A stretch of DNA of 35,103 nucleotides. It comes from Candidatus Hydrogenedens sp. Lineage in GTDB: Bacteria > Hydrogenedentota > Hydrogenedentia > Hydrogenedentales > Hydrogenedentaceae. Positions 2,037 to 30,667 of this stretch are shown in pieces; position 1 is the stretch's first letter, and each line of letters starts with the position of its first letter. The position numbers and the translations under genes are program-made. The notes under the pieces were generated by a model. The model saw only the letters and a list, made by a program, of their open reading frames with translations. It was not told the DNA's origin and made no database searches. The DNA is taken from positions 1-35,103 of the forward strand of contig JBMFRC010000029.1 of the NCBI GenBank assembly GCA_049968235.1, written 5' to 3'.

Positions 2037-2057
2037 AATAGTCTCCCTAAGACTAAA

Positions 2058-2075
2058 AGCGGAAATATTTCCGCT
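2058..2075. promoter_or_regulatory. Perfect 18-bp palindrome AGCGGAAATATTTCCGCT (GGAA-N4-TTCC core). Candidate NrpR operator in the nrpR leader, possibly autoregulatory.
   Basis: Read directly: positions 2058-2075 are self-complementary. This lies 22 bp upstream of the nrpR start codon at 2036. Its half-site CGGAA and flank TTCCGCT are shared with the second palindrome at 2178-2193. Confidence 0.45.
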
Positions 2076-2139
2076 TATTTATTTATATCATATTTTACAC
2101 AAAACAAAATATATCGTCAAAATATCTATATAATTTGAT

Positions 2140-2170
2140 TTGAAAACATTAAATTATTTGTATTATAGTA
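2140..2170 (+). promoter_or_regulatory. Putative sigma70-type promoter of gdhA: TTGAAA -35, then a TATTAT/TATAGT -10 region with a TG just upstream.
   Basis: TTGAAA is at 2140-2145. TGTATTATAGT is at 2159-2169 after a 15-19 bp spacer. The GGAA-N6-TTCC palindrome follows immediately downstream. The RBS AAGGAG at 2234-2239 sits 6 nt before the ATG at 2246. Confidence 0.3.
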
Positions 2171-2177
2171 TCCAAAT

Positions 2178-2193
2178 CGGAAGTGTGCTTCCG
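2178..2193. promoter_or_regulatory. Palindrome CGGAAGTGTGCTTCCG, an exact GGAA-N6-TTCC. Candidate NrpR operator overlapping the start region of the gdhA promoter.
   Basis: Read directly: CGGAAG (2178-2183) and CTTCCG (2188-2193) are reverse complements around a TGTG spacer. GGAA-N6-TTCC is the published NrpR operator consensus in methanogens. The site lies just 3' of the predicted -10 and ~50 bp upstream of the gdhA ATG. Confidence 0.5.
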
Positions 2194-2221
2194 CTAACTT
2201 ACTGTTTATTACTAATAATAA

Positions 2222-3589
<1,368 letters not shown>

Positions 3590-5671: not shown

Positions 5672-6211
5672 ATGAAATATAAAATTGTATTATCTGTTAT
5701 TGTTTTACTTTCAATGATAGGTAGTGTATATGGAGGATATAAAATTACACGGTTTCTCTTTACTAATTATGCCAAGCCTTTTTCCATACCTTCGGAAGAA
5801 TTAAACGATTATGAAGATTTGTGGCTATCTGTATCCATTTTATCGGACATATTAACAGAATATAATAAGCGAATGAAGGAAAAAGGAAATGCTTTTGCTC
5901 TAAAAGAGAGAGAGTGGATAATTCATAGTGCCCAGCCAACATTACAAAAGATAAAAGAGAAAATATTAGAAAAGCAAAATCAAAAAAGACAACGCTCAGA
6001 AAAAGTAGAAATATTATTTAGACAAATCCAATATTTAAGTGAGCGAATAAATACTATGTTTCAATTTCCCGCAGATGAATCCTTAAAAAAAGCCGTTTTT
6101 GCCGATTTTTATCAATATTTATGTTTATTACACGAATATATTGAACAGAAAAAACTCCAGAGACTTATTCCTACAAGTAGAATCGTGGTAAGATTTCAAA
6201 AAAACTTGTAA
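5672..6211 (+). CDS. Hypothetical membrane-anchored protein with a single N-terminal TM helix or signal anchor and a K/E/Q-rich helical region.
   Basis: 179 aa. The N-terminal hydrophobic segment is IVLSVIVLLSMIGSVYGG. The remainder looks like a charged coiled coil. The gene lies 12 bp after the SprT-like gene and is probably co-transcribed with it. No recognisable family. Confidence 0.35.
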   Translation: MKYKIVLSVIVLLSMIGSVYGGYKITRFLFTNYAKPFSIPSEELNDYEDLWLSVSILSDILTEYNKRMKEKGNAFALKEREWIIHSAQPTLQKIKEKILEKQNQKRQRSEKVEILFRQIQYLSERINTMFQFPADESLKKAVFADFYQYLCLLHEYIEQKKLQRLIPTSRIVVRFQKNL

Positions 6212-8898: not shown

Positions 8899-10176
8899 TT
8901 ATATGTTGGGTTTACGCTCATTAAGTCCTGTATAAATTTGGCGAGGGCGATGTATTCTTGTATCCGGGTCGTTTCTCATTTCTAACCAATGTGCAATCCA
9001 CCCCGGTATTCTACCTAATGAAAATAACACAGTAAACATTTGGGTAGGAATGCCCATTGCGCGATACAGTATTCCACTATAGAAGTCAATATTGGGGTAC
9101 AACTTGCGTTCAATAAAGTAATCATCATTCAAAGCCACTTCTTCAAGATTTTTCGCTATTTCTAATAGCGGGTCATTTATTCCCATTTCCGCAAAAATAG
9201 CATCCACCGCACCTTTTAGTAACTTGGCTCTCGGGTCATAATTTTTATATACACGATGCCCGAAACCCATAAGCCTGAAATCCGAATCCTTTCTCTTTGC
9301 CAGTTCAACATACTTTTTGTAGTTTGACCCATCTTTATAAATCATTTCTAACATTTTTAGCACTGCTTCGTTGGCACCGCCATGCAAACGACCCCACAAT
9401 GCACTGATACCAGCAGAAACACTTACATAAAGGTTCGCCATGGAACTACCAACCATACGAACTGTAGATGTACTGCAATTCTGTTCATGGTCAACATGTA
9501 ATATAAGAAGTAAATCAAGAGCCTTTTCAAAAACTTTAGGGACAATATATTCTTCTGCAGGTGATGCGAACATCATACGAAGGAAATTGGCACAATACGA
9601 AAGGTCTGTTTTCGGATATATATAAGGTTCCCCAATAGATTTTTTGTAAGAAAATGCTGCGACTGTTTTTGCCTGACCGATAATTCGAACAATAATATTA
9701 TTTAAATCCTCTTTCTCATAATTTGGGTAAAATGAAGGCATAGCCGCTATCATTGAACTTAAAATGCTCATAGGATGTGCATCCAGAGGAAAAAACGAAA
9801 AGAAGTTGACCATACTTTGATGAATAAAACTATTCAAAGTAAGTTGTCTTCTCCATTCTTTCGCTTGTTCAGGAGTAGGTAACTCACCATAAATTAGTAA
9901 ATAAGCAATTTGAGAAAAAGGAAATTTACCTGCAAGACTTTCAATGGGATAACCACGATACCTTAATATTCCTTTGTCTCCATCAATATAAGTGATACCA
10001 CTTTTGCAAGAACCTGTATTCCCATATCCCGGGTCATATGTTAATGCTCCTGTTGTATCTCGTAATTTTCGTATATCAATTCCTATTTCATTCTCTGTTC
10101 CTTCAAATACAGGGAGTTCGTATTCTTTCCCGCGAAGTATTAATTTGCATGTTTCTGTCATATTTTTCCCTTTCAT
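8899..10176 (-). CDS. gltA: Citrate synthase.
   Basis: 425 aa. Citrate-synthase signatures are present (GYGNTGSC..., the GHRVYKNYDPRA active-site region and the HWLEM-type C-terminal region). The true start may be the internal Met at MTETCKL. Confidence 0.95.
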   Translation of the reverse strand: MKGKNMTETCKLILRGKEYELPVFEGTENEIGIDIRKLRDTTGALTYDPGYGNTGSCKSGITYIDGDKGILRYRGYPIESLAGKFPFSQIAYLLIYGELPTPEQAKEWRRQLTLNSFIHQSMVNFFSFFPLDAHPMSILSSMIAAMPSFYPNYEKEDLNNIIVRIIGQAKTVAAFSYKKSIGEPYIYPKTDLSYCANFLRMMFASPAEEYIVPKVFEKALDLLLILHVDHEQNCSTSTVRMVGSSMANLYVSVSAGISALWGRLHGGANEAVLKMLEMIYKDGSNYKKYVELAKRKDSDFRLMGFGHRVYKNYDPRAKLLKGAVDAIFAEMGINDPLLEIAKNLEEVALNDDYFIERKLYPNIDFYSGILYRAMGIPTQMFTVLFSLGRIPGWIAHWLEMRNDPDTRIHRPRQIYTGLNERKPNI

Positions 10177-10222: not shown

Positions 10223-11827
10223 TTAATTTTTGATGTTAAATTTTCGATTAAATATTGATAAAATTTGTTTTATTTCCTTGATATTTAGAGACCATGCAGT
10301 TACCAAATATGTCAGGGAACAAACCAACCCTGTAAAACAAATATAAAGACTTAATACTATTATTCCATTTATATTTTTTATATTAAAAAATAAGTTTATC
10401 AAAAAGAACATACAAATTACAATAAAAATGGAAATCCCGTATTTCAATATATTCAATAAATACTGTTTGTTGATAAGATTTCCTACTTTGAATCCAATAA
10501 TGATAAATAAGATAAAAAAGTTTGTCCAGAAGGATATTGTAGTGGCTATAACTAATCCAAGATAGTCTAAAGGTCTAACTAAAAGAATATTTAAGACAAT
10601 ATTTAATATCATACTAAATGATGAAGTAATAACCGGTATAGTCGTAATATTCATGGCGTAAAAACCCTGAGTTAATACTTTTACACCGGAAAAACCAATA
10701 ACCCCAATGGAGTAGATAAAAATTGCATTTGCTGTTCTTTGAGTTAATTCTTCCCCAAAATGTCCCCTTTCAAAAAGTAATTGGACAATTGGCTTACCAA
10801 GAAGCATCAGCATAACCATAGCGGGTAATATCATAAATAATGTTTGTAAAAGTCCTTCCTGTAAAGCACCTCGAATTTTTGGATATTCTTTATTTGCAAA
10901 ATACCGCGATAACTCAGGGAGAAGAGATACAGACACTGCCGTACCAAAAATAGACAAAGGTAATTGTATAAGCCGATTTGCATAAAAAAGAGCAGATACC
11001 GTCCCTTCTGATAAAGAATATGAGAAAAAACTATCTACCAATTTATTAACTTCGCCGGCAGCCTGTCCAAAGATTATAGGGATAAGTAAAATAAATGCTT
11101 TTTTTACACCCTGTTGATTCCAATTAGTTGTAAAACCTAAACCTCCTAATTGTTTCTGAGCCTCAAAATATAAAACTCCTGCCTGAGATATACCTCCTAA
11201 CCAGAGTCCTATTACAAGCGACCATATAATATTGATAGAAAAAAAATAAGGAATAAAAATAGAAATAATTAAGGCGATATTGAGTAATGCGGGTGTTATT
11301 CCCGGTATTTTATAATCTCCCAGGACAAATAGGGGAGCCATCATAAAAACAGCGATTCCTATCCAGAAGAGATAAGGAAAAGACCACTGTAAAACACGAA
11401 CTGTTAATTGAAGTTGTTCTTCAGATTTCGGTAATTCTTGTGTAAATGTACTTAATGAACCTAATAATTGTGGAACAAATGGCATGAGCAGGACACCGAT
11501 TAAAGATACTCCTAAAAGAATTAAGAACATGATGGAAAAAAGAGAACTAACCAGTTGTTTCATAGCATTTCTTCCCTGTGTTTCTTCACATTCGGAAAGA
11601 ATAGGGACAAAAGAAGCATTAACCGCACCTTCCCCTAATAAATCTCGCAATGTGTTTGGTAAACGAAAAGCAAAGAGAAATGTGTCTCTTGAGAAATCAG
11701 GGACAAACCACCCTATCAAAATATCTCTAACCAGTCCTAAAATACGACTGAACATGGTTCCCCCCGCAAAAATCAATGCATACTTCCATCGAGAAATGGA
11801 TGTTTTGTCTGTTAGTTCTGTTTTCAT
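10223..11827 (-). CDS. murJ: Lipid II flippase MurJ (MviN).
   Basis: 534 aa polytopic membrane protein. The N-terminus (FSRILGLVRDILIGWFVPDFSRDTFLFAFRLPNTLRDLLGEGAVNASFVPIL) closely matches the MurJ N-terminal consensus. Confidence 0.9.
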   Translation of the reverse strand: MKTELTDKTSISRWKYALIFAGGTMFSRILGLVRDILIGWFVPDFSRDTFLFAFRLPNTLRDLLGEGAVNASFVPILSECEETQGRNAMKQLVSSLFSIMFLILLGVSLIGVLLMPFVPQLLGSLSTFTQELPKSEEQLQLTVRVLQWSFPYLFWIGIAVFMMAPLFVLGDYKIPGITPALLNIALIISIFIPYFFSINIIWSLVIGLWLGGISQAGVLYFEAQKQLGGLGFTTNWNQQGVKKAFILLIPIIFGQAAGEVNKLVDSFFSYSLSEGTVSALFYANRLIQLPLSIFGTAVSVSLLPELSRYFANKEYPKIRGALQEGLLQTLFMILPAMVMLMLLGKPIVQLLFERGHFGEELTQRTANAIFIYSIGVIGFSGVKVLTQGFYAMNITTIPVITSSFSMILNIVLNILLVRPLDYLGLVIATTISFWTNFFILFIIIGFKVGNLINKQYLLNILKYGISIFIVICMFFLINLFFNIKNINGIIVLSLYICFTGLVCSLTYLVTAWSLNIKEIKQILSIFNRKFNIKN

Positions 11828-11837
11828 AGGAGATTCT

Positions 11838-13421
11838 TCATTTCTTTTTCTGTAAGAGAAGTAAAATATAAACGATAAAACCTGAGAAACTTAAAAATAA
11901 CGAAACCAAATCAGGATTAAAATGTAGTACATAATTAGACGCCACCGGGACCTTATAAATTCCTCCTGAACGCAATCGGACACCAATTTCCGGATAATCT
12001 GACATGGGTTCATAAACAAAGGTCTGATTTTTGCTGATAATTGTATTTACCGGGAAAAATGTCCCTGATGGGGTAAACAAGCCTGATATACCTGTATTGG
12101 TGCAATGTATAACAGGAAGTCGAGTTTCGATAGCACGCATTCGGCATATCTCTAATTCCTGACTAAGTGCATTAGTCGCCCCAAACCATGACAAATTGGT
12201 TAAAACGGCGAGAAGGTTGGCTCCCTGTTTTTTCAAATTATAAGCCATATTGCTAAAAAGTACTTCAAAACAAATGAGTGGTCCAATAACTAATTGTTTG
12301 TTAATAGCAAATATTTTCTGTTCTTTCCCCGCCGTAACATCGTAAGGTAAAATACTTCGTAAAAAAGGGAGGAACTGAGATAATGGTAAATATTCCCCAA
12401 AGGGTGCTAAATGGACTTTATCATAAAAATCCATAACTTTCCCTTCTGGGTTTACCCAGATACAGGAATTATAATCATTCCCTTCTGAATCTATTCTTGT
12501 TGTGCCGGTGATAAGATGTACGGATTTTTCATGTGTGAAGTTTTGAATTAGTGATAAAATCTCTTTGTTCTTATAATCAGACATAATCAGTGCTTCAGGC
12601 CAGAAGACAACCTGAACATTTTTATTTTCAATCAGATTGTTAGTATATTGAATAGTCCAGCGAACCATATCTTCATACCATATAGGGTCAAACTTCATTT
12701 CTTGGGGGAAACAGGGTTGCACAATGGCTACATGAATATCATTCTCTTTTTGAGTTTTTACACCTGAAAAAAGGAAGAATCCTACGAAATGGACCAAAAG
12801 TATAATAGCGAATGCATGGATTAAATACTTCCATCTTCCTTGTTTAGTTAGAATTACGAAGGCGATTAACATATTTATAGTTATGATAAAAAAGGAAAGA
12901 AACGGAACACTTCCAATAACAACCAATTGAGAAAAATAAATATCGGGACCCTGACTATAACCCAAATTACACCAACCGAAACCTGTTAGTGTATGTCCCT
13001 GTATCCATTCTATCCCTACCCAGAGAAGACCAGAAATATATACTTTTGTCAGGATGGATGCATTTTTTCCATATTGTGAGAAGCAATAACCATACATAGC
13101 CCACAAAATAGAAAGACCCGCTGATAGACACTGATACCCAATAAAAGCAGGACCCCCAACCCAAAACATATTTGTGATAAGCCAGTTAAGCGTAAATGAA
13201 TGAAAAACCCATCCACTTATAAAAAAGTAAAGAGATACCTTCAATGGGTTTTGTTCAGGAATTGCGACAACGAGTAATGGGACAAAGGCAATCCATATTA
13301 AAAAGTAAAGATGGAATTTAGGGAAACATAAGAATAAAATAATCCCTGTTGCAACAGAAAGAAAAAAAGGGTTCTTTATTAATTTTTTAATTTTTTGAAT
13401 AAAAGATGAAATCTTATTCAT
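11838..13421 (-). CDS. lnt: Apolipoprotein N-acyltransferase.
   Basis: 527 aa. A multi-TM N-terminal half is followed by a CN-hydrolase domain. The catalytic Cys sits in the ICFE context (GPLICFEVLF, compare E. coli LICYE). Confidence 0.85.
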   Translation of the reverse strand: MNKISSFIQKIKKLIKNPFFLSVATGIILFLCFPKFHLYFLIWIAFVPLLVVAIPEQNPLKVSLYFFISGWVFHSFTLNWLITNMFWVGGPAFIGYQCLSAGLSILWAMYGYCFSQYGKNASILTKVYISGLLWVGIEWIQGHTLTGFGWCNLGYSQGPDIYFSQLVVIGSVPFLSFFIITINMLIAFVILTKQGRWKYLIHAFAIILLVHFVGFFLFSGVKTQKENDIHVAIVQPCFPQEMKFDPIWYEDMVRWTIQYTNNLIENKNVQVVFWPEALIMSDYKNKEILSLIQNFTHEKSVHLITGTTRIDSEGNDYNSCIWVNPEGKVMDFYDKVHLAPFGEYLPLSQFLPFLRSILPYDVTAGKEQKIFAINKQLVIGPLICFEVLFSNMAYNLKKQGANLLAVLTNLSWFGATNALSQELEICRMRAIETRLPVIHCTNTGISGLFTPSGTFFPVNTIISKNQTFVYEPMSDYPEIGVRLRSGGIYKVPVASNYVLHFNPDLVSLFLSFSGFIVYILLLLQKKK

Positions 13422-13518: not shown

Positions 13519-14655
13519 TTACAAGTCGTCCTGCATGGCTTTAATTTCTTCTTCAATTCGGTCTGTATTTTGCCATTTATCCCCCCGTTTTTCCCAGAAC
13601 CGAATTGCACTGGACCCTTCCTCAGACATGGTCCGCAGGTCAACCACTGTAGGCTGGACAAATATAAGAAGGTGGGTAATATCCGATTGGGCTCTTCGGG
13701 AACGGAAAGGTATTCCTATTAGAGGAAGTTTCCCAATTCCCGGAACACGATTCTCAGATTTTCGAATATTCCGACTGGAAAGCCCTCCGATGACCAGCGT
13801 TTGCCCATTAGGGACAATGACAAAACCTGTTTGGGAACGCTTTGAAAATACAGGTAGGTCAATTCCTCTGAGACGGTCAATACGACTAATATCCGTTACA
13901 TCCAGTTGCTTGATTTCCAGTTGTATCATATTATTGGGTAATATTGTTGGAACTAATTCCAGATTTACTCCTATATCCCGCCACGCAACGCTTAAGTTTG
14001 GGGTAGCTGATTTTGTTATTGATTGATAAGGGATTTGCCCACCTGCTTTTATTACTGCGGGTGTAGCATTCATTACTAAAATCTCTGGTTTAGAAATAAG
14101 GTCAACATCAGATTTAGTTTCCAATGCACGAAAGACTCCATCCAATGTTCCATAATCCCATGTAAGTATGCTGAATGTTAAACCTCCTCCTTGTGGGGAT
14201 TGTATTCCAGGAAGTGATGCGTTTTCATCTCTTCGGATAGGTTTTTCACTAAAATCGGGATTTTTATAAGGAACGGCAAAAGGAGGTTGCGAAGGATTAG
14301 AAGATGGAGCAGGTATGGTGACTGAAGAAAAGTCCTGGGAGAAATCCATTGTATTTGTAGTTATTTGTGGTATTTTTAAATGTTCGTTTTCTTTTTCTCT
14401 ATAAAAACGTACAAAATTTAGATTTGTACCTAACTTTCTCATTCCGTTTTCATTTGTTTCACTAATCCATACTTGTACCTGTACCTGACGTATATCTTCA
14501 GGTGGAGGTGGTGTTGACGGAGGTGGTGGAGTAGCGGGTGGGGCTGGAGCCGGTTGTTGAGCGTCTTGTGCAAAAAGGTTAATTGTAAGTAATAAAAGAA
14601 TCGGCAATATATAAAATATCACAAAATATGTATATGTAAAGTTACTACGTTTCAT
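13519..14655 (-). CDS. Short secretin-family outer-membrane channel protein (secretin paralogue 1).
   Basis: 378 aa. A signal peptide ends ...LFAQDAQ and a Pro-rich linker follows. The C-terminal secretin-domain consensus is clear: GQTLVIGGL..RN.....VPGIGKLPLIGIPFRS.......LLIFVQPTVV. The size matches pIV/CpaC-class short secretins. The ATGA overlap at 14652-14655 couples it to paralogue 2. Confidence 0.65.
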   Translation of the reverse strand: MKRSNFTYTYFVIFYILPILLLLTINLFAQDAQQPAPAPPATPPPPSTPPPPEDIRQVQVQVWISETNENGMRKLGTNLNFVRFYREKENEHLKIPQITTNTMDFSQDFSSVTIPAPSSNPSQPPFAVPYKNPDFSEKPIRRDENASLPGIQSPQGGGLTFSILTWDYGTLDGVFRALETKSDVDLISKPEILVMNATPAVIKAGGQIPYQSITKSATPNLSVAWRDIGVNLELVPTILPNNMIQLEIKQLDVTDISRIDRLRGIDLPVFSKRSQTGFVIVPNGQTLVIGGLSSRNIRKSENRVPGIGKLPLIGIPFRSRRAQSDITHLLIFVQPTVVDLRTMSEEGSSAIRFWEKRGDKWQNTDRIEEEIKAMQDDL

Positions 14656-15869
14656 TTTCTGCCTTTTCCCTCATTTAAATCGGAGTCCACTCCATTTTCA
14701 TCTTTATTGATTTGAACACCTGTTATTCCCTCAGCTATACCTTCAGGGATTTCCTTCAATCCACCTAATACATTGGTAATTATTTCAGTAGGTGAGATTT
14801 TTGTAGATTTCTTTTCTTCTTCTGATGTAAAACCATACTGGTCTGCTACTGTATATGAAGGTCTCCATAACTCTGCTTTTAATAAGAACACAAGTTCTCT
14901 GCGTCCTTCATCTTTTTTCTTATTTCCTACTCCCTGACTTAGAGGTATTTCCGGTGTTTTAAAAGGGGTAACTCTTTGAATTAAACCATTTGCTAACCCC
15001 TCTCCCTGTATTAGCCAGGGGACAGAAGAGGATGTCTTTGTGCGGGTATTGCGATACAATCCCCCTAAAATTAACACCTGTCCATGTCGAACCCAGATGG
15101 TAGTTGTGATACTCCGTGAAATAAATTCAGGGACACTTATTGTGTTCGCTGTATTGCCTGCGATGGCTACATTAAGGCGTTGTCCTTCTTCTGTAATGGC
15201 TGCAGTGATTGTTAACTGAATATAAATATCTTCTGTTGTTCGTGGGTCTCCATCATCATCAATGACTTTATTTGCCTGAACACTTAAATTGACACCTGTC
15301 GGTTTAAATTCTGTTACTTGCTGTGTTACTACACCAATAACAATGGTGTTTTCATAAGGTATTTCTTGCACAGTTTGTATTACAGTAGGAGCAGATGCCC
15401 CCACCGGTACTAATGCCTTAGGACGAGATAGAATAAAAGCACGGTTTTGACTAACTAATGCTTGAAGTACCGCTTCAAAATCGCCCCATTTGCTTGTCAT
15501 CCTATCCAGAAACACAGTTATTGTCGGGGATTGGGTTGTAGGAAAAGTTAAATCACCTGTTGTTATGGTTGGATTCCCTAACGATACTCTACCATAGGGA
15601 CGAGGGTCTGTTTTTTGTCGGAAATAACCGGATAGCCCTGTTTCACTTCCAATGTGTGTCTGAAATTCAATAATTTTAACGGATACATTGACCTGTTGAG
15701 GTGTTGGGTTTTGAGCGAAAGTTATTAAAGTTAGATTTATAAGGTATATAAGGAAGAAGAAAATTCTATTGTTTTTATCAATTAAAAAATTCCCTTTTAG
15801 AGAGTAATGCATATATGTGCTAAAGTAATTTTGTTTTATTTTATTCATCGTAATAAGCCATATAATCAT
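14652..15869 (-). CDS. Short secretin-family protein (secretin paralogue 2). The start codon is uncertain; alternative starts are 15848 or 15812.
   Basis: 405 aa as tracked. The likely signal peptide is ...IFFFLIYLINLTLITFAQNP, whose cleavage region is paralogous to gene 1. A degenerate secretin core is present (GQVLILGGLYRN.....VPWL...GLANGL ... ELVFLLKAEL) with an insertion before the final strand. The tracked start overlaps the upstream TPR gene by 29 nt. No clear SD precedes any of the three candidate ATGs. Confidence 0.55.
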   Translation of the reverse strand: MIIWLITMNKIKQNYFSTYMHYSLKGNFLIDKNNRIFFFLIYLINLTLITFAQNPTPQQVNVSVKIIEFQTHIGSETGLSGYFRQKTDPRPYGRVSLGNPTITTGDLTFPTTQSPTITVFLDRMTSKWGDFEAVLQALVSQNRAFILSRPKALVPVGASAPTVIQTVQEIPYENTIVIGVVTQQVTEFKPTGVNLSVQANKVIDDDGDPRTTEDIYIQLTITAAITEEGQRLNVAIAGNTANTISVPEFISRSITTTIWVRHGQVLILGGLYRNTRTKTSSSVPWLIQGEGLANGLIQRVTPFKTPEIPLSQGVGNKKKDEGRRELVFLLKAELWRPSYTVADQYGFTSEEEKKSTKISPTEIITNVLGGLKEIPEGIAEGITGVQINKDENGVDSDLNEGKGRK

Positions 15870-16818
15870 AGTGGTCTACATTTTCTATATTATCAAAATT
15901 TACAAACTGCGCACTAAAAGGTTTAATTTGCCCCGAACTCAAGTTTCCAAGTGTAATAGTTTGTGTATCATAAACAACTCCACTAAATCCATAGATTGTT
16001 AACTGAACAGTTACATTTCGCAATGTTCTTGAACTACGGTTTCGAACCTGTCCGGAAACATTATATATATGATGTTTGAAATCACTGGACCAACCTAATG
16101 AGCGTCCACTTCGGAAAGAGGTTACATTAAAGAAAACAATAGGATTTTTTTCTGCTTCGCGTTTAAGTGCTTCTTCGGGAGTTAATACAACAATTTCACC
16201 ATTTGCTCCTTTTTCAAGCCTGCTGGAAATAACAGGATGAGACCAATAATTCGAATCTAAAGAAATTATAGATTTATAAAGATTTCCCGCTTTAGAGAAG
16301 TTCTGATTTATCCAATACCAATTGGCTAACTGTAACATAATATCTATATTTTGAGGTTCTTGCTGTAACTTTTGTTCAAGCATTCGAATCTGGTTTTCTA
16401 TCGTATCTACTTTTTCGATGTGGTTTATCGGTGAACCTATTAATGTTCCTATTTGTTTGCGAGAATGTTCCGCATATACGCCCTGTGGTGCTAATTGTAA
16501 ATATTTAATATAATAACTTAATGCATTTTGAGGACTTCCTAATTCTTGATATACAACCCCTAAAAAATAAAATGCGTTAGTATCCTTTTCTCCACTTTCT
16601 ATAACCGATAATAATTTAGGTAGAGCTTGAGAAAACTGTCCTTTTTCGATTAATTGCTGAGCCAGTTTTATTTCAGAAAAGGTAGTATTTGTATTATAAA
16701 GGTTTCGATGGCTTAGGTTCAGAAAATCCTTATCGCGTTTTATAAAAGGATTCCCCTGACAATTACCTAGATATAAAAGAAGGATTACTCCTATTATTAT
16801 TCTGTAATAATATACCAT
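15841..16818 (-). CDS. TPR-repeat secreted protein or lipoprotein; candidate pilotin or assembly factor.
   Basis: 325 aa. The N-terminal signal sequence has an atypical possible lipobox, LGNC. It has at least 3 TPR-like helical repeats (AFYFLGVVYQELG..NALSYYIKYLQLAP...). The C-terminal ~120 aa form a beta-rich domain of unknown family. It lies immediately upstream of the secretin pair. Confidence 0.5.
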   Translation of the reverse strand: MVYYYRIIIGVILLLYLGNCQGNPFIKRDKDFLNLSHRNLYNTNTTFSEIKLAQQLIEKGQFSQALPKLLSVIESGEKDTNAFYFLGVVYQELGSPQNALSYYIKYLQLAPQGVYAEHSRKQIGTLIGSPINHIEKVDTIENQIRMLEQKLQQEPQNIDIMLQLANWYWINQNFSKAGNLYKSIISLDSNYWSHPVISSRLEKGANGEIVVLTPEEALKREAEKNPIVFFNVTSFRSGRSLGWSSDFKHHIYNVSGQVRNRSSRTLRNVTVQLTIYGFSGVVYDTQTITLGNLSSGQIKPFSAQFVNFDNIENVDHYDYMAYYDE

Positions 16819-16881
16819 GGATTACCTTTTGATTTTATTGTAGAAATATAATTGTTTAAGGATTTTATAAATATTCCAATA

Positions 16882-17286
16882 CTATCTTTTTGCAAGTCTT
16901 TCTAAAACTTTAGAGGTAATATCTTCGGCAGGAATTTGTTCACCAGTATTCTGCCAGTAATTAAACTCTGCCACAAGGTCAAACTGACTTTCTTGTGCTA
17001 CCTCTTGTATTGTTTTTACTGCCCGTTCACTGGCTTTGCTTAGCATTATCCAGTATTTCGCTGTGCCCGCCTCTATTTTCCTTTCTTTAATGCCTGCAAA
17101 TTCAGGTGTCGCTTGAATAATCTCTTCAAATTTAACCAGACCCGGTTTATTAAATTTGGAGGCAGTTCCCCAAAATATTTTCTGTTCATCTACCTTATCC
17201 GGTGATAAAGATAATGGGTCGGCTAATGCCCATAAATTACTGCACAGAAGGGCGAGGCTTATTATTAGAATTGTGCTTACCCGCAT
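16882..17286 (-). CDS. Small secreted protein, OmpH/Skp-like periplasmic chaperone candidate.
   Basis: 134 aa. The signal peptide is MRVSTILIISLALLCSNLWALA. The C-terminal segment (VAQESQFDLVAEFNYWQNTGEQIPAEDITSKVLERL) resembles the conserved C-terminus of Skp/OmpH proteins as recalled from memory; this was not verified. It is the first gene of the minus-strand envelope cluster. Confidence 0.4.
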   Translation of the reverse strand: MRVSTILIISLALLCSNLWALADPLSLSPDKVDEQKIFWGTASKFNKPGLVKFEEIIQATPEFAGIKERKIEAGTAKYWIMLSKASERAVKTIQEVAQESQFDLVAEFNYWQNTGEQIPAEDITSKVLERLAKR

Positions 17287-17778: not shown

Positions 17779-20346
17779 ATGAATTACAGGTTCTATAGGT
17801 TTTTTATTTTTGCTGTAATGGTTAGTTTGTTTTTATGTTTTTCCCCATGTTTGTCTTATGGAAATGAAATAGGTGATGAATATTCTGCCTTCCGTTTGTT
17901 AGATAAATCTGTTATACCTGGTAAAAATATTTCGTTGGAAATTTCTTTTGGTAATTTAATAGAAAAAGAGGGAGAAGCGTTAGTTCCTCTTATTTGTGAA
18001 ATGGATGCTAAGCATAGTTATTCTTATGTCGTGGCTTCTCTTGATATTTCAGAAGAAAAAAACAACGAAACTCCAATTCCTATTAATACTATCCAAACAG
18101 TCTCTTTAGTAAAGGGATATAATCGTATTCTATTTTTATTGCCCATTCAGAAACTGAAGGATGGCATTTACTATGGAAATTTACAGGTTAAATATACAAA
18201 AGAGGAAAAACCTGCAATTGTTGTATTTCAGATAGAAAAAATATCTTCTAAAGGATTGGAAGAACAATTAAATTTTGTCTCTCAAGAGGTTGATAATGTC
18301 ATATCTTTGAATAAAGATATACAGAATGACAAATCTGTAGAATTTAACTTAATACAAAATTTATTATTACAAGCCCGTAACGAATTTAATGATAAACATT
18401 GGGAGGATTTATCAGATACTTTGAATATATTACAGGAGCAAATTTCGCAGTTAAAAGATTCGCTTCCAAAAAGTAATGCAACAGTTATTTCTCCGCAAAA
18501 AGAAGACCTTTCTTTATCCATTACTCCGGAAGGGGTATTTTCAAACAAGAAACCTGTTAATGTAATTGGGATATATTTAAATGAGCCGACGATGGATAAT
18601 GCGAAAATGGTTATTGACTATGCCATTCCTGTGGTAGTTTTCCCTATTACACTGGATAAAATGTTTCCTACAGAATCGGGAGAACAAACATTACCCGCAG
18701 ATATTATGGGGATATTGGATTATTTGTTTGAAAATAAGGTTTATGTATTGTTTCAGATAGTTCAGGAACAGGTCCCTCCATGGTTATATGAAAAGACTCC
18801 GAACATACATAAAGATGGATTTGTGGATTTATCACAGAGACCTGTGTGGGACTTAATCGAAAAAGGATATAAAGAAATAATCAATTATTGTAAAGAGAAA
18901 TCATTTTTCCTTGGAATGAGTTTGGTAACTGAGCCCAAATTTAAGTTTGATGGTGATTTTGTGCGTCAGTCCTTTATTGAATGGGTTAAAGTCAATTATC
19001 CAGACAGACAAACATTAAATCAGGTATGGCATGCACATTTAGCGAATTATGAAGAAATTACCATTTGGGATGAGGTTGCTCCTCACTGGAGTTATCAAAA
19101 TCGTAGAGCCTACCAATATGATTGGCAGAATTTTCATCGGGAAATGATTTCAAACTTGTTAAAAGGTGCATTGGACCAATTCCGCTTATTTTCCTCCGAT
19201 GTTCCTGTTTCTATTACTTTCCCGTCAACAGTTTTTGAACTGGATGAAACCAAATATACCCCTGACCGGGAACAGACGATTCCTTATCTGGACTTTATCC
19301 CCATAAGTGTTTCGTTCAATACAGAAGATACAGTATACGCTCAAGGGTATCCTGACCCTGCTGTGGATGTCGTATGGATGCGTTCGGTATCTAAGGGAAA
19401 ACCCATTATTATCTCTTCTGCTAATTTAAATTTCAAAGAGGGTATGACAGATAATGAGAAATATAAACATACGCAAAGTTTCTTATGGGAGATGGCATTA
19501 GCAGGAGCACAGATTGTCGCTGTTAATATTACAGGTGATTTAAGGGATAATGTAGAGATATGGAAAGCCATTTTTGATACAAACTCCCTGTTTTTAAAAA
19601 TTAGTCCAGAACTTAGACAATTCCAATTATCAAAGGCAATGGTACGAGTCCTGTTTAGTGATTCCTCAAAGATTCTTGATGGAGGTACCCCTCATTTAAA
19701 ATCTGCCCGGTTCGCATACGAAGGGAGTTCCTTTGCTGGGTATGATGTGTGTTTTGCAACCGAAAAAGGAATAGAAACAGGGATATTACAGGATACGAAA
19801 GTTCTTATTATGCCTCAAACATTATCTCTCGAAGATGATGTTTTCAATATTATTACAGATTTTATTCGTAATGGAAATTATGTGATTCGTGTTGGGACAC
19901 AGATTCCCTATGACCCGAAAGGTATGTCCCGTCGGGATGTGGTTCAGCCTACCAGTAATACGATATTAGTGCGTGGAATGAATCTTCCTACAGAGTACCT
20001 TCACGGCATGGATGCTTTGATTTCTAAAAAGGCTTTGGCATCTATACCAAGACCAGTAAACAAAGTAGGCTACCCATTGGAGGGCATTAAGTCAAGATTT
20101 ATCCCTTCAGAAGATGGTGGAGGATATTTATATTTGCTTAATTTGAGAAAAGAAAAAGTCCTCTGCCGACTTACCGGGTATTTACAGAAGGGATATAGTT
20201 TGATGGATAATACGGAAATTGAATTTCCTAGAGAATTACAACCTTTAGAATTAATTTTTATGAAAATGGTTCCACCGGACTACGAAAAAATTGTTCAGAT
20301 AGAACCATTACCTACAAAAAAAGTAGAGAAGAAAAAGCATAAATGA
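17779..20346 (+). CDS. Large secreted protein with a clan GH-A-like TIM-barrel glycoside-hydrolase core and a beta-galactosidase-type trimerisation-like domain (GH42-like, tentative).
   Basis: 855 aa. The signal peptide is MNYRFYRFFIFAVMVSLFLCFSPCLSYG. An N-E-P motif (IGIYLNEPT, nt 18580-18588) sits in the position of the GH-A acid/base. A candidate nucleophile is LVTEP, with the Glu at nt 18931-18933. A downstream segment VLIMPQTLSLEDDVFNIITDFIRNGNYVI resembles the GH42 trimerisation domain. The first ~240 aa are unknown. Confidence 0.35.
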   Translation: MNYRFYRFFIFAVMVSLFLCFSPCLSYGNEIGDEYSAFRLLDKSVIPGKNISLEISFGNLIEKEGEALVPLICEMDAKHSYSYVVASLDISEEKNNETPIPINTIQTVSLVKGYNRILFLLPIQKLKDGIYYGNLQVKYTKEEKPAIVVFQIEKISSKGLEEQLNFVSQEVDNVISLNKDIQNDKSVEFNLIQNLLLQARNEFNDKHWEDLSDTLNILQEQISQLKDSLPKSNATVISPQKEDLSLSITPEGVFSNKKPVNVIGIYLNEPTMDNAKMVIDYAIPVVVFPITLDKMFPTESGEQTLPADIMGILDYLFENKVYVLFQIVQEQVPPWLYEKTPNIHKDGFVDLSQRPVWDLIEKGYKEIINYCKEKSFFLGMSLVTEPKFKFDGDFVRQSFIEWVKVNYPDRQTLNQVWHAHLANYEEITIWDEVAPHWSYQNRRAYQYDWQNFHREMISNLLKGALDQFRLFSSDVPVSITFPSTVFELDETKYTPDREQTIPYLDFIPISVSFNTEDTVYAQGYPDPAVDVVWMRSVSKGKPIIISSANLNFKEGMTDNEKYKHTQSFLWEMALAGAQIVAVNITGDLRDNVEIWKAIFDTNSLFLKISPELRQFQLSKAMVRVLFSDSSKILDGGTPHLKSARFAYEGSSFAGYDVCFATEKGIETGILQDTKVLIMPQTLSLEDDVFNIITDFIRNGNYVIRVGTQIPYDPKGMSRRDVVQPTSNTILVRGMNLPTEYLHGMDALISKKALASIPRPVNKVGYPLEGIKSRFIPSEDGGGYLYLLNLRKEKVLCRLTGYLQKGYSLMDNTEIEFPRELQPLELIFMKMVPPDYEKIVQIEPLPTKKVEKKKHK

Positions 20347-24676: not shown

Positions 24677-27600
24677 GTGAAAACAGCACCTTTTACCCAA
24701 ATGTTAGTTATGACTATTGTTGTCTTGTTCGTAATTTCCTGTGGAGGTGGAGATGTTAATAAAGGAGAGGGAACAAAAGAAATTGTATCCCAATCTCAAA
24801 ATGTTGCAAAAGAGGTTCCTAAAATACCGACACAGGAAGAAAATTTTTTGGTGCCAATATCCCAGTATCCTTTACCAGGGGATGCGATAGAAAAAAAGTT
24901 TATTTTATTCTTTGATAAAAATGTGCATTTCCCACCGGAGGTCCCTATTGATGAATATGTTAAAACAGAACCACCTTTAAAAGGGATTACGGACTGTGTA
25001 GAGAATAAAATTGTTTTTAATATACTGCAGGCTATTCCCAAAAATGTAGATGAAGTGGTGTTTCATATTCATCCGGAGTTGCAGTCAGAAGAGGGAATAA
25101 AAATAAATCCTCAAAATTTGAGTTATCGGGTTCCTGTTGAAGAAGTGCAGGTAGTAGAAGGAAATTTTAGTGAAGTGGGTGAAGATTATTTTATATTTTC
25201 ACTGGATTTTAACCACTATGTTATAGGGGATGATATAAAACATTTCATTTCCTTAAAGGACCAGAATAATGCGGATGTAGAATTTGATGTAAAATCTCCG
25301 GGACAATTCATAAATACAATAAATTTGCATGTAAAATGGACAGGAACTGAGTCTTATAAACTTTTAATTAAACCGGGCTATACAGATTACCGCAAGAAAT
25401 ACAAGGGACAGGGGGCTTATTTTGAATTTCCAATAAAAGATACATTAGAAGTTGTAGAATGTAAGAAGAAAAGTAATATGGGATATCAGATTGTATTTTC
25501 CAGACCGGTTTCGTCAAAAGCCATTTACAAGTGTCTGCGTATAGCATCATCTACTCAGAATAATATACCTTACTATGTTATACCTGCAGATGTGAGAGTC
25601 GTGCAAGAGATAGCAATAGATTTGCCCCAGAATTTAGAACAAATTGGAGAGGGAAAAATATCCAAAGCATGGATAATAAATTTGAAGAATCCATCTTTCC
25701 CTATGTATTCAGTCTCTATTGAGTTAAGAAAATCTACATGGTCTAACGATATGGCTCTTCTTCCTGAGGAATACCGATGGGAAACAAAAGTGAAGGAAGA
25801 TGGTGGGTTCAGTATTTACTATTCGTATTGGAAGAGTAATGGACTTGATGGTGTCTCTTGTTTTTTGAATATGACAAAGGTGAATAAAGAAACCTTTATG
25901 AAATATTTTGAAGTCATACCGCCTGTAGATAATCTTTCTATTAAGGATAGCCAGTGGAATGAAGTGGAGATAAAAGGGGACTGGAAGACGGGTGTAAAAT
26001 ACCTCTTAAAATTTAAGGCGGGTTTACAATGGGGAGAAAATAGTGGGACCGATGAGAATCCAAAATATATGTTGTTAGAAAGGGATTATGCATATACAAT
26101 GAAAGATGTTCCACAATTCAAAACACTTGATTTTGATAATAAAGATAAGTTTTATATCATTCCTTTCCATGAGAAGAACTACATTCGTGTTGGTTCACGT
26201 AATGTGTCCAAAGGATATATTCATATTTATCAAGTTATGCCCGAAAACCTTTCTATTTGGTTAGGGAATGTTTCAGAGAATACGGTTCCTTTTGAAATTA
26301 ATGAGAGAACTAGCAAATATCTTACTTCTATTCCCGTAGAGTTTCCCAATAGTGTGGATAGAGCAAGTTTCATTGATGTAGATATAACACAATATTTATC
26401 AGATGTCCCGAAAGGAATATTTACATTATGTTTATCGGATAATAGTAACCCGGGTAGATTAAGAGCAAGTTGGGAACCCAAAAAACAAGAAGAGGAATCT
26501 CAATTGGAAAATTATGGTTATGAGTGGGAGGATAGAGGAGATTCTTATTACTATCCTTACGGCGGTTCGAATGATGGAGATTCGTTTTATCAGGATGTAA
26601 AAGGTACAAGAAGTGCTATCCGATATATATTGTGGACTCGGTTAGGTGTTGTTTCTCATTGGGATGATGCAAGTTTAATGGCATTTGTTCATGATTTAAT
26701 AGATTTGACTCCACAGATGGGTGCTGTGGTCTCTGCTTATTCCATAAAGAATCTTAAAGTGGTGGAGGGAGTATCGGATAATAACGGTATTGTAAAGTTG
26801 ATTTTGGGAAAACAGGATTTAGGAACTCCACGGCTTCTTACTGTCAGGACGGATAAAGATTTTTCTTTTGTTTTATTAAAACCCAAAGAGTTACCTACAT
26901 TAAAAGAACTTGAAAAGTATGATAGTTTTGAAAAAGATAGATATGAAGCATTTATTTATACGGATAGGAATCTTTACCGACCGGGAGAATTGATACACTC
27001 TCGCTGGGTTGTACGGAAGAATTATGGCGCGGATATTATTAATGCTCCTCTGGAATTACGGTTTATTAATCCACAAAAAAAAGTTGTTCATCGTAAGATT
27101 GTGAATTTATCTGAATGGGGAACAGGGGGAGAAGACATAATAACAGAATTCACTTATTTGACGGGGGCTTATACTTTAGGCTTATATGTTCCCGGAGGAG
27201 AACTTTTATGTGGTTCTATTCCTATTTATATTGAAGATTTTGTGCCGGATAGAATTAAAAACGAAATCACTGTTCCTAACAAATTCTGGATTGTTGGTGA
27301 TGAACAAAGTTTTGAAGTTTCCTCTCAATATTATGTAGGACCACCTGCAGTGGATTTGCCATCTAAAGGTAAGTTAATTATTACTCCTACAGAATTTGAA
27401 CACGAAAATTGGAAGGGTTACCGATTTGGTAATGATGAAATATTAAAAACTGTAGTTATGGATTTAGGAGTTCAGAAAACAAATGAAGAAGGGAAATCTA
27501 ATTTTTCCTTTAATTTTAGTCCACCGGGACCTATTAATAAACCGATAGAAATTTCTATTGTGAGTGAAGTTTCAGAGGCAGGAGGTAGAGCCGTTTCTGC

Positions 27601-30600
27601 GGTGAAAAAAGTCAAAGGCTATCCTGAATCCGTTCTTTGTGGTCTAGGTGTGGAAAAAGTCGAAGATAAGTTGCAGGTTGTAGTAGCGTTGGTTGATAAG
27701 GATTTTGCTCCTGCTCTGGATGAAGAAGTGATTGTGTATTTAGAGAAAGTCGAATGGCGATATGTTAACCGGTATTATTCTGGAAGTAGTAGAAATACTT
27801 TTCCACAATGGGACCGTTACTTTACATTAATTGAGCAAAAGAAGGTAACCACAAGTGGTGGGAAAGCCACTGTTTACTTAAATATTCCCCAATATTATTC
27901 TACATATCGTATTAGAGCGCAGAGAACCAACGGGAAAGTTTTTTCAGAAGTCTCTTTTTATTCTGTTCCGGGCAAGATGATAAATCTTAAAGGAGGACCT
28001 CCGGAATTGGTGAAAATCCATATTGAGGATAAAAAATGGTTAGCCGGTGAAAAGGTTCCAGTAAATATTGAAGTTCCTTTTGATGGGAAAGCGGTTGCAG
28101 TGATACAGGGAGATAAAGTGTGGGATATGCAGGTCCTGGATATAATTTCCGGGAAAGGCAGTTTCTCTTTTGAGGTGAAAGAAGAATATTTCCCAAATGT
28201 TTGGGTTGGAGTGTCTGCTCTTCATGTCCCCACAAAAGAGGAAACAATTAGTCCTTATTCTACATTTTCTTTTGCGAAGGTAGATATTGAAAAGCCAACC
28301 CGAAAAATGAATGTTGAAATCTTAAATGTGCCAGAAGAAGTTAAACCTCAGAATACAATAGAGATTGGAGTTAAAACAACAGATAACAATGGGAATCCCG
28401 TTGCTTCAGAATTAACAGTTGCATTGGTCGATGAAGGGATACATTCTATTTTAGGTTATACTTTGCCCAATCCATACGAGTGGTTCGGTAGGTCACGATA
28501 TTCACCTATTCGCCGTGTACATTATTATGACCATGTAGCGTATGGCTATGACCCATTATCGCCCTCAGGGGATATGATAGCCCGACAATTATCCGCAGGG
28601 AAGCCAGAGATATCAGAGTCGTGGATAAAACCATTAGCGTTATGGTCAGGCTCTGTTAAAACGGATGAACAGGGGCAGGTAAAAGTTTCTTTTAATCTAC
28701 CCGAATTTAATGGAACTGTAAGGTTAGTTGCAGTGGGTGCCAATAAAGAGTTGGTAGGTTCCTCTGAAACGAAAATGTTTGTAAGACGACCCTGTGTTAT
28801 TCAAACGCACCTCCCTCGATTTCTACGACCAAATGACCGTGCTATAATTTTTGGCAGAGGGTTAAATGCTCAAGATAATCCGTTAGATATTAATCTCTCG
28901 TTAACACATAACGATGTTGTGGATATTGAGCCTTCTCAGATACACTGGGAAGCCGTTCCTAAAAATCTCAGCCTTTCTCCTGAAATCGTCCTATCTTGTC
29001 TTACAGGGACGAAAAATGCAGAGTTGAACTGGCAATATAATATTGTTGATAAAACGGGAAATATTATTGATGAATATTCAGAACATACTGTTATTCCCGT
29101 TCATTTGCCGTCTATATACGAGCAAAGAGTAAAGTCGTATGTGGTCCCAATTGGAGGAAATTTACAATTAGACACTTCCGAATTTGTTAACAATCCATTA
29201 TTAGAGACAGAAATCAAGATAGGTAGCACTCCATTTCTACGAATAGAACCTGCATTAAAATGGTTAAGGACTTATGATTATTGCTGTTGTGAACAAAAAA
29301 TTTCACGACTCTATCCTTTGTATATATTCCGCAATTTTTTGAAAGAATCTATGGAAGATGTCATTTCTAAAGAGAATTATGACCAATTATTATTAACAAT
29401 GGTAGATAGCTTGTTTGCACATCAGCAGGCGAACGGAGGTTTTTCGCTCTGGCCCTATAGTAATTCTACGGATATAAAAGCGTCCCTGCATGTGGCATTT
29501 CTACTGACGATGATTAATCGAGATAAAACATTGCCTTTACCTGAAAAACTCTATCAGCGGGTGCTTGCTTTTCTACAAGATGTATGTTCAGAAGAGAATA
29601 CAGAGGATTCCGTTAATGACCAATTTAAGGCTTATGCATCATTAATTCTTGCTTTAAATGGAGACCCTTCCGCATGTGAACGAGTTAATAATATGTTAAA
29701 AGCAGATTATCCACGGAATTTGAAAGTTCTACTTCTTCTGACAGCAGATATTTGTGGTGTTCCTCGTGAAGAATTGAAGAAATATGTGCAATTACTTCAA
29801 TGGGAAACATCTGTAGAAAACCAGATATGTCCATGGGAATATGGTTCTTCTGAAGTACGGGAGTATGCCTTGAAACTTATCTCAAAAGTGATTGCGGATG
29901 AACCCTTGGATAGCATTCATGAAACACAAAAACCTCTTATGGATTATATCTCTAATTATACAGGTTATACGACCTATAATTTGTCTATGATACTGCTGGC
30001 ATTAGATATAAGCTTTAAGAAGATGAATATACAGCCTTTTGAATATCAGACAGAAATAAAAATAGATGATAATGTCCAGACGCTTAAAGGCACAAAACTG
30101 CTTAAACGAAAGAAGCAGGGACCCACAAATATAGAAATTAACAATCAAGGAAATTCTCCATTGTTTGTTTATTGGACTATACGCGGGATTTCAAATAATC
30201 CACCTAAAGACGCACAATCAAAAAACATAGAATTGCAACGGATTCTTTACAATGCTCGCAATAAGACAAATATGGAAAGTCCTTACTTGCAGGGCAGTGT
30301 TTATGTAATGGAGTATCAAATAAAACCTCAAAAAGACGCTCAAAATTTAATTCTAACTCAATTGCTACCCGCAGGATTTGAGATTGAAAATCCGAGGCTT
30401 AAACAGGAACAAATATCGGATATATTCTCATCGATATCCAAAGAACCCGTCAATACGATTACCCCTGAACATATAGAAATAAGAGATGATAAACTTATTG
30501 TTGCCCTTCCTTCGTTAAGTTCGAGAAATAAGTATTCTTATGTATGTGCTATTCGTGCAGTTACGAAAGGAAGTTTTGAATTTCCAGGTGCTTATATTGA

Positions 30601-30661: not shown

Positions 30662-30667
30662 AATCAT

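Follow-up and report, generated by a model that had tools for sequence, protein, structure and literature searches.

Secretins are the universal outer-membrane gates of type II secretion systems (T2SS), type III secretion systems (T3SS), type IV pili (T4P) and filamentous phages, and every characterised secretin known to us is a homo-oligomer whose N-terminal domains dock on an inner-membrane machine. Here we analyse a block of four genes, encoding a small secreted protein (p134), a tetratricopeptide-repeat (TPR) lipoprotein and two short secretins (S2 and S1), in a 35,103-base stretch of DNA (the window) that is an entire contig of a Candidatus Hydrogenedens metagenome-assembled genome (MAG); its outer flanks could be read only from relatives. 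With about even confidence, we regard the four genes as the parts and assembly factors of one minimal two-paralogue secretin channel that would work for a type IV filament or T2SS-like machine whose genes lie elsewhere. The combination of an obligatory second paralogue, nothing N-terminal beyond an N3 domain, a lipoprotein with TPR and FxLYD domains, and a miniature Skp-like protein is apparently undescribed (we know of no other case), and full-text literature searches found no paper on this module or on any hetero-oligomeric or orphan bacterial secretin.

Among the closest described systems is the RcpA–TadD pair of the Tad (type IVc) pilus (PDB 8odn), in which a short secretin (∼420 aa) of classical fold is bound at its C-terminal S-domain by a dedicated PilF-like TPR lipoprotein that is needed for ring assembly (PMC10499894). 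RcpA was matched by S1 in sequence (E-value (E) 7.6e-18), and structural models of both S1 and S2 matched 8odn. However, RcpA carries a VirB9-like N-domain, forms a single-species ring and lies in a tad operon with its ATPase and pilins, whereas our block has two paralogues, nothing N-terminal beyond N3, an FxLYD domain on its lipoprotein and no tad genes nearby; TadA, TadB and TadC were not found within ±10 kb of the block in the 79 species loci compared below. Neither S1 nor S2 matched the N-terminal domain of RcpA/CpaC, and the resemblance is confined to the secretin domain.

PilQ with its PilF, PilW or Tgl partner likewise joins a secretin to a TPR lipoprotein, often encoded apart from pilB and pilC, and Vibrio cholerae PilQ was the best PDB sequence match of S1 (E 9.1e-21), with GspD at 4.7e-20 and with RcpA, InvG and pIV also matched, all through the secretin domain alone. 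PilQ is, however, 570–900 aa long, carries AMIN, N0 and N3 domains and belongs to pilMNOPQ, and on the PilQ model TIGR02515 S1 reached 117.4 and S2 50.2 bits, where the cut-off is 284.35. GspD, which works with GspS/AspS pilotins, aligns with our proteins through its N3, secretin and S-domain core (GspD positions ∼335–591 by S1 and ∼335–559 by S2), and GspG is present in one lineage that bears the module (L094); but GspD docks on GspC through N0, N1 and N2 domains and is part of a gsp operon, T2SS pilotins are small non-TPR lipoproteins, and the scores on the GspD model TIGR02517 were 116.5 (S1) and 53.6 bits (S2) against 351.35. In NCBIfam as a whole, both proteins aligned just to the C-terminal N3 and secretin part of GspD, PilQ, MshL and SctC, and neither reached any equivalog cut-off, all scores lying far below. 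The NCBI pipeline labels both S1 and S2 GspD, a label that is misleading for this family.

Phage pIV (PDB 7ofh, matched by both models) resembles our secretins in its length (∼405 aa) and in being encoded without a pilus ATPase, but it keeps N0, works with the phage inner-membrane proteins pI and pXI, and is a homo-oligomer encoded on a mobile element, whereas the block is core-genomic and vertically inherited. BfpB–BfpG of the type IVb pilus (PDB 9u5s, also among the fold matches of S1 and S2; PMC12531336) provides a precedent for a channel of two different polypeptides, although BfpG is a small accessory and no full secretin itself, and the whole machine is encoded in the bfp operon. We rejected an origin from a mobile element or from phage pIV, since the block is vertically inherited and core-syntenic, and also a T3SS secretin, since T3SS genes are absent and the T3SS models gave the lowest family scores.

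S1 and S2 are genuine members of the secretin superfamily, each consisting of a signal peptide, one N3-like domain, a secretin domain and a conserved C-terminal tail. Against the Pfam family Secretin (PF00263; gathering cut-off 27.5 bits), S1 scored 126.9 bits (E 7.8e-37) over the full profile and S2 63.6 bits (E 2.2e-17) over profile positions 1–137 of 169, which places both in the family. Pfam searches found no N0, Secretin_N, STN, AMIN or BON domain in either protein even at E≤1. AlphaFold monomer models, built from 35–36 homologues, had a mean predicted local distance difference test score of ∼63 (62.8 for S2), with values of 75–90 in the hairpins, and both display the secretin fold, that is, long double-barrel β-hairpins preceded by an N3 ring-building domain. 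Each model comprises an N3-type β-α-β-β-α domain with a low-confidence insertion, the barrel hairpins, a segment resembling the amphipathic helical loop (in S2 a helix at residues 284–300) and the tail. Using Foldseek against the PDB, the first 40 matches of S1 and the first 37 of S2 were all secretins; by sequence, S2 had no PDB match at E≤1e-3.

The two proteins are 26% identical. S1 has a Pro-rich linker after the signal peptide, a disordered insertion in its N3-like domain and a helical, S-domain-like tail of two helices with invariant A350, F353, W354 and E370; the tail of S2 carries the motif SPTxVITGVLxGIxxIPQGIAEGI. S2 most likely starts at Met8 (position 15848), because orthologues align from Met8 and NCBI has a 398-aa version. 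An earlier annotation made from the letters of this DNA (the sequence-only reading) had proposed two translationally coupled secretin-family proteins of ∼380–405 aa, and this held: both passed PF00263 and their genes overlap, with a probable length of 398 aa for S2. Of the domain models that it had named for comparison, Secretin was matched and N0 and BON were not, while an N3-like domain appeared in the models. Separately, residues 199–216 of S2 (approximately positions 15222–15275, minus strand) form a near-invariant acidic loop, A.x.V.DDDGxPxTTEDxYI, between two barrel hairpins, a loop that S1 does not have and that may bind metal or form part of a lip in the S2 paralogue alone.

Orthologues of S1 and S2 that are 50–90% identical occur among hundreds of metagenomic proteins, those with a taxon name coming mostly from Hydrogenedentes. 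A scan of one genome per GTDB species returned 128 relatives, and 79 loci were kept, most of them labelled Hydrogenedentota; we take the other labels (uncultured Nitrospirales, uncultured bacterium and generic names) to be labelling artefacts. The order p134–TPR–S2–S1 was found in all ∼57–63 Hydrogenedentota loci with enough upstream sequence, so that the co-occurrence of the four genes in related genomes, which the sequence-only reading had left to be checked, is borne out with constant order. All-versus-all clustering of the flanks placed S1 in 80 loci, S2 in 72, the TPR gene in 63, p134 in 57, lnt in 49, murJ in 37 and a GH42-like gene in 37; apart from antisense shadow open reading frames (ORFs), this clustering of flanking ORFs revealed no other recurrent neighbour. 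In one locus TPR–S2–S1 is duplicated as a unit, with the second copy in tandem (L027:8389-11779), and four others (L043, L046, L051 and L064) have a third, S1-type secretin between S1 and lnt.

Beyond the phylum, an S2 profile searched against 1.84 billion representatives found 14 full-length clusters scoring >340 bits, one of them from Sumerlaeota; below these, scores fell to ≤153 bits (short secretins of 290–390 aa). The TPR–S2–S1 core is present in Sumerlaeota (L087) and in four further lineages (L088, L090, L092/L093 and L094; Table 1). In L087 and L088, the first secretin is closest by BLAST to S2 and the second to S1, and the S1/S2 duplication therefore predates these lineages. TPR–S2–S1 is thus an ancient unit, passed on vertically in Hydrogenedentota, Sumerlaeota and other lineages.

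We then considered whether S1 and S2 act together. In 36 loci the S2 stop codon and S1 start codon share 4 nt and in 29 they share 1 nt, together 65 of 74 Hydrogenedentota loci (88%); outside the phylum, L087 has 8 nt of overlap and L093 has 4 nt. Pairwise distance matrices were compared for the 31 species having all six genes (the block, lnt and murJ), with the mean lnt and murJ distance regressed out as background. Distances of S1 and S2 correlated with r=0.86 before and a partial r of 0.80 after this removal, the corresponding values for S1 or S2 against TPR or p134 being 0.39–0.48; each secretin is kept at ∼50% identity across the phylum. This co-variation is consistent with physical interaction, as supportive and not conclusive evidence. 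Because the S2/S1 overlap is kept and the distances co-vary, we infer that S1 and S2 form a hetero-oligomeric channel. The hetero-paired secretin of the sequence-only reading thereby gains indirect support, from the kept overlap, co-evolution, co-duplication and universal co-occurrence.

The protein encoded upstream of the pair had been described as a TPR protein with a signal peptide, resembling an assembly factor. The TPR repeats are present, at about residues 50–200, but the protein is better described as a lipoprotein with an FxLYD domain: Cys20 is invariant in 26 orthologues and is preceded by a lipobox in nearly all of them (LAGC, LSSC, LNAC and similar), and the C-terminal 70 residues are an FxLYD domain (NF038353; 35.9 bits, cut-off 23), which scored above cut-off in 26 of 26 orthologues scanned and is present in L088 too. 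The six outgroup TPR proteins that precede a secretin pair are all full-length, FxLYD included, score 175–255 bits against the family profile and have lipoboxes. The protein cross-matched YbgF, BamD, MamA and PilW, none of them near the curated cut-offs; PilW (TIGR02521) gave 37.5 bits against 154 (E 1.7e-9) and Tgl (NF033762) an E of 0.022. Because the PilW and Tgl scores lie below cut-off, the lipoprotein is, as judged from its sequence, an analogue and not a member of the PilF/PilW/Tgl/TadD pilotins, and it shares with pilotins a lipobox with an invariant Cys, TPR repeats and a gene beside the secretin pair in every lineage. Identification as BamD (TIGR03302; cut-off 81.4 bits) was rejected on curated cut-offs: the window protein did not reach E≤1e-3, the L088 orthologue scored 25.8 bits, and the weak matches seen in 24 of 26 orthologues had a best E of 6.2e-13.

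For p134, the sequence-only reading had suggested a Skp/OmpH-like secreted protein. The protein has an N-terminal signal peptide (MRVSTILIISLALLCSNLWALA, followed by DP), and its C-terminal region (...AVKTIQEVAQESQFDLVAE...AEDITSKVLERL) matches the last part of the OmpH profile (PF03938), in the C-terminal OmpH motif, with 22.2 bits, below the gathering cut-off of 32.4. Weak OmpH matches recur in 16 of 24 orthologues, through the C-terminal motif alone (best E 9.4e-6), and the L088 orthologue, at 26.8 bits, is also below cut-off. The secretion signal and the recurrent resemblance thus stand, but the scores do not place p134 in the Skp/OmpH family; a profile search against the PDB found no significant homologue. 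In 57 Hydrogenedentota loci the p134 gene precedes that of the TPR protein, and three of the six outgroup lineages have orthologues; p134 is accessory to the module.

As the sequence-only reading had noted for the window, partners from pilus, T2SS or T3SS machinery are absent, both there and within ±10 kb of the block in the 79 related species loci (1.13 Mb). Among the window's 29 ORFs of ≥100 aa, Pfam searches found no match to T2SS, T4P, Tad or T3SS component families, and its six frames contained neither a prepilin motif nor a GspE/PilB/PilT/TadA Walker A motif. In Walker- and prepilin-motif scans of the 1.13 Mb of flanks, the sole T2SSE-family ATPase was an orphan 330-aa PilT-like gene after murC-ftsQ-ftsZ in L039. 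PilT-family ATPases are thus present in Hydrogenedentota, which lends something to a link with type IV filaments. A PilT-like ATPase gene in this place (L039:20353-20925) occurs on other contigs of Hydrogenedentota and relatives too (L083:9190-10182 and L084:10001-10993), an odd conserved position at the end of a division cluster, and no pilus cluster surrounds it on the contigs followed.

Filament-like genes were nevertheless found near the block in some lineages. Prepilin-type N_methyl/DUF1559 genes are present in L001, L079, L080 and L093, GspG scores above its curated cut-off in L094 (126.9 versus 88.85 bits), 7 kb from the block, and pilin-like genes adjoin the block in L088 and L093. In L088 (55% G+C; L088:12487-20993), the genes directly after the block are, in order, three for prepilin-like proteins (the first of 136 aa, weakly matching PilV, GspI and XpsI; the second of 359 aa; and the third of 629 aa, with a weakly GspK-like N terminus), a HEAT-repeat gene, pilM, pilN, pilO, a pilP-like gene and a PilQ of 857 aa with AMIN, Secretin_N and Secretin domains, so that three secretin genes lie in one 12-kb stretch. 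A tblastn search with the L088 PilM, PilN, PilO, PilP, PilQ and pilin-like proteins found no matches in any of the loci. The block can thus occur among type IV filament genes without being, in L088, the canonical secretin of the type IVa pilus (T4aP). That it coexists there with a pilMNOPQ cluster carrying its own PilQ supports the earlier view that it is not an ordinary pilus secretin. T4P and T2SS genes are scattered across loci in cyanobacteria and Legionella (PMC4793230), and the distance of the block from motor genes is therefore not in itself unusual.

In the mechanism that we favour, whose roles are inferred by analogy with RcpA–TadD and PilQ–PilF, S2 and S1 would be made in a fixed ratio through the stop/start overlap and p134 may keep periplasmic protomers soluble and unfolded. 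Lgt, Lsp and the downstream-encoded Lnt, the last by N-acylation, would mature the TPR lipoprotein, which would then be sorted to the outer membrane, where as a pilotin it would bind the C-terminal tails of S1 and S2 and carry or nucleate protomers. The two secretins would assemble together as one hetero-oligomer, either a ring of alternating protomers or two coaxial rings. Such a channel would most likely be the exit gate of a type IV filament-class machine, T2SS-like or a pilus, with genes for its ATPase, platform and prepilin-like subunits at other sites in the genome and, N0 being absent, would be coupled to the inner membrane via an adaptor other than the binding of GspC or PilP to N0.

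Several points weigh against this mechanism. We know of no hetero-oligomeric secretin, and the co-variation of S1 and S2 could come from shared constraints on paralogues of the same fold. No gene for GspE/PilB, GspF/PilC, PilD, GspC or PilMNOP was found within ±10 kb of the block in the 79 species loci, the pair is not required as T4aP secretin in L088, where the canonical PilQ is present, and prepilin-like genes are numerous in these genomes, so that their proximity may be due to chance. Without N0, the sole known docking site for inner-membrane partners is missing. The roles of the TPR lipoprotein as pilotin and of p134 as chaperone are putative, drawn from weak family resemblance and gene order. 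Some of the same observations suit a gated pore that stands alone, an S1/S2 ring with its own lipoprotein and chaperone and no motor, used for example in the uptake or release of macromolecules. Neither S1 nor S2 has N0 or another periplasmic coupling domain, ATPase or platform genes never adjoin the block in ∼85 contexts, the module brings its own assembly factors, the T4aP of L088 has a separate PilQ, and the block is core-genome-like, vertically inherited and syntenic with lnt and murJ. This explanation stays alive because the absence of N0 leaves inner-membrane coupling unexplained, but we consider it unlikely. No characterised secretin is known to work without an inner-membrane machine (compare PMC10499894), so large a pore, ungated or self-gated, would come at a high cost, and we see neither an energy source nor a part that would recognise substrates. 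Nor does a stand-alone pore follow from missing neighbours, as the sequence-only reading had suggested: secretins and whole systems are commonly encoded in scattered loci (PMC4793230), prepilin genes are present in these genomes, GspG is found in L094, and in both L088 and L093 the block borders on pilin-like genes. In its boldest form, S1/S2 would be the first hetero-oligomeric secretin and a motor-independent, self-contained channel with a BamD-like lipoprotein and a mini-Skp, belonging to the core envelope of Hydrogenedentota, Sumerlaeota and allied lineages; this, too, we hold to be improbable.

Two further explanations do without a mixed ring. S1 and S2 might instead be two homo-oligomeric secretins that serve two machines, for example one T2SS-like and one a pilus, and stay neighbours only because they share one pilotin (and chaperone). 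All solved secretins are homo-oligomeric, every PDB secretin matched by S1 or S2 being a single-species ring, the two proteins have diverged to the low identity given above and differ in their tails, and four loci carry the third, S1-type copy. We think this quite unlikely, however, given an overlap that implies fixed stoichiometry and is kept in most loci, the strong partial distance correlation, an invariant S2-then-S1 order and the finding that S1 and S2 are always together wherever both sides are sequenced. The block could also be a general operon for outer-membrane biogenesis, with the TPR protein as BamD, p134 as Skp and the secretins as incidental neighbours or clients, to which the widespread BamD matches described above, PDB profile matches to BamD chains in N-terminal register, weak YfiO Pfam matches in L087 and L090, the OmpH-like signal in p134 and the neighbouring lnt and murJ all lend something. 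That the BamD scores are far below cut-off, and that YbgF, MamA and PilW score like BamD, is typical of TPR cross-matching; every TPR orthologue has the additional FxLYD domain, its gene is tied to the secretin pair in every lineage and co-duplicated with it in L027, and p134 is missing from three of six lineages outside Hydrogenedentota. We regard a general biogenesis operon as very improbable, and retain the two-paralogue channel with a machine encoded elsewhere.

Within the window, whose G+C content is low (about 35%), the four genes are contiguous and partly overlapping on the minus strand as the sequence-only reading had described them, and all their ORFs were confirmed at the coordinates in Table 1. 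The 5′-to-3′ order on this strand is p134, TPR, S2, S1, lnt, murJ and gltA. The TGA of S2 and the ATG of S1 share 4 nt (ATGA), the TPR stop and S2 start overlap by 8 nt if S2 starts at Met8, and no terminator-like site or hairpin was found between S1 and lnt on the minus strand. The proposed co-directional cluster through lnt, murJ and gltA does run along one strand in the window, but its link to lnt and murJ is not obligate: L003 has the block without either gene, and in no outgroup lineage were they found next to it. The link is phylum-level synteny in much of Hydrogenedentota, outside the conserved core.

Table 1. Features of the window and composition of the block in outgroup loci (numbers joined to gene names are lengths in aa; Sec, secretin).
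Feature	Positions	Strand	Length (aa)	Description
p134	16882-17286	minus	134	Small secreted periplasmic protein, putative short Skp/OmpH-like chaperone
TPR-FxLYD	15841-16818	minus	325	Outer-membrane lipoprotein, putative pilotin/assembly factor
S2	14652-15848 (mechanical ORF to 15869)	minus	398 or 405	Divergent short secretin
S1	13519-14655	minus	378	Canonical-looking short secretin
lnt	11838-13421	minus	527	Pfam LNT_N and CN_hydrolase
murJ	10223-11827	minus	534	Pfam MurJ
gltA	8899-10176	minus	425	
GH42-like gene	17779-20346	plus	855	Signal-peptide protein
NrpR-type regulator	1017-3589			Pfam NRD1_2, E 1.3e-79
Alpha-2-macroglobulin and PBP1C-type genes	24677-32989	plus	1994 and 773	Bacterial alpha-2-macroglobulin, then transglycosylase/transpeptidase
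ORF	11-985		324	No Pfam/NCBIfam match
ORF	5672-6211		179	No Pfam/NCBIfam match
ORF	32990-34537		515	No Pfam/NCBIfam match
L087, Sumerlaeota				TPR316-Sec356-Sec345
L088/L089				OmpH-like147-TPR343-Sec330-Sec346
L090/L091				TPR309-Sec302-Sec314
L092				147-TPR304-Sec391-Sec371
L093				144-TPR318-Sec336-Sec373
L094				TPR313-Sec298-Sec347

Other genes of the window are listed in the same table. The GH42-like gene is divergent from the module and its product shows weak GH42/GH167 similarity (Pfam E 2.1e-6; PDB 9whd, E 8.5e-7); orthologues occupy the same position in ∼37 Hydrogenedentota loci, and the protein could be a cargo or merely reflect old synteny. Divergent from a neighbouring glutamate dehydrogenase gene is the gene for an NrpR-type regulator, a protein known mainly from methanogenic archaea as their nitrogen repressor. 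The alpha-2-macroglobulin gene followed by the PBP1C-type gene is the known yfhM-pbpC pairing.

If the two-paralogue channel is real, secretin rings can be built of two paralogues and the block defines a minimal pore-forming unit, which raises the question of how, or whether, a ring without N0 couples to a motor. The automatic "GspD" annotation would also make KEGG-style inference of a T2SS in these MAGs unreliable. To our knowledge, no export route has been established for the DUF1559 prepilin-like proteins that are so many in these phyla; the channel, if it exists, would be an outer-membrane candidate for handling them.

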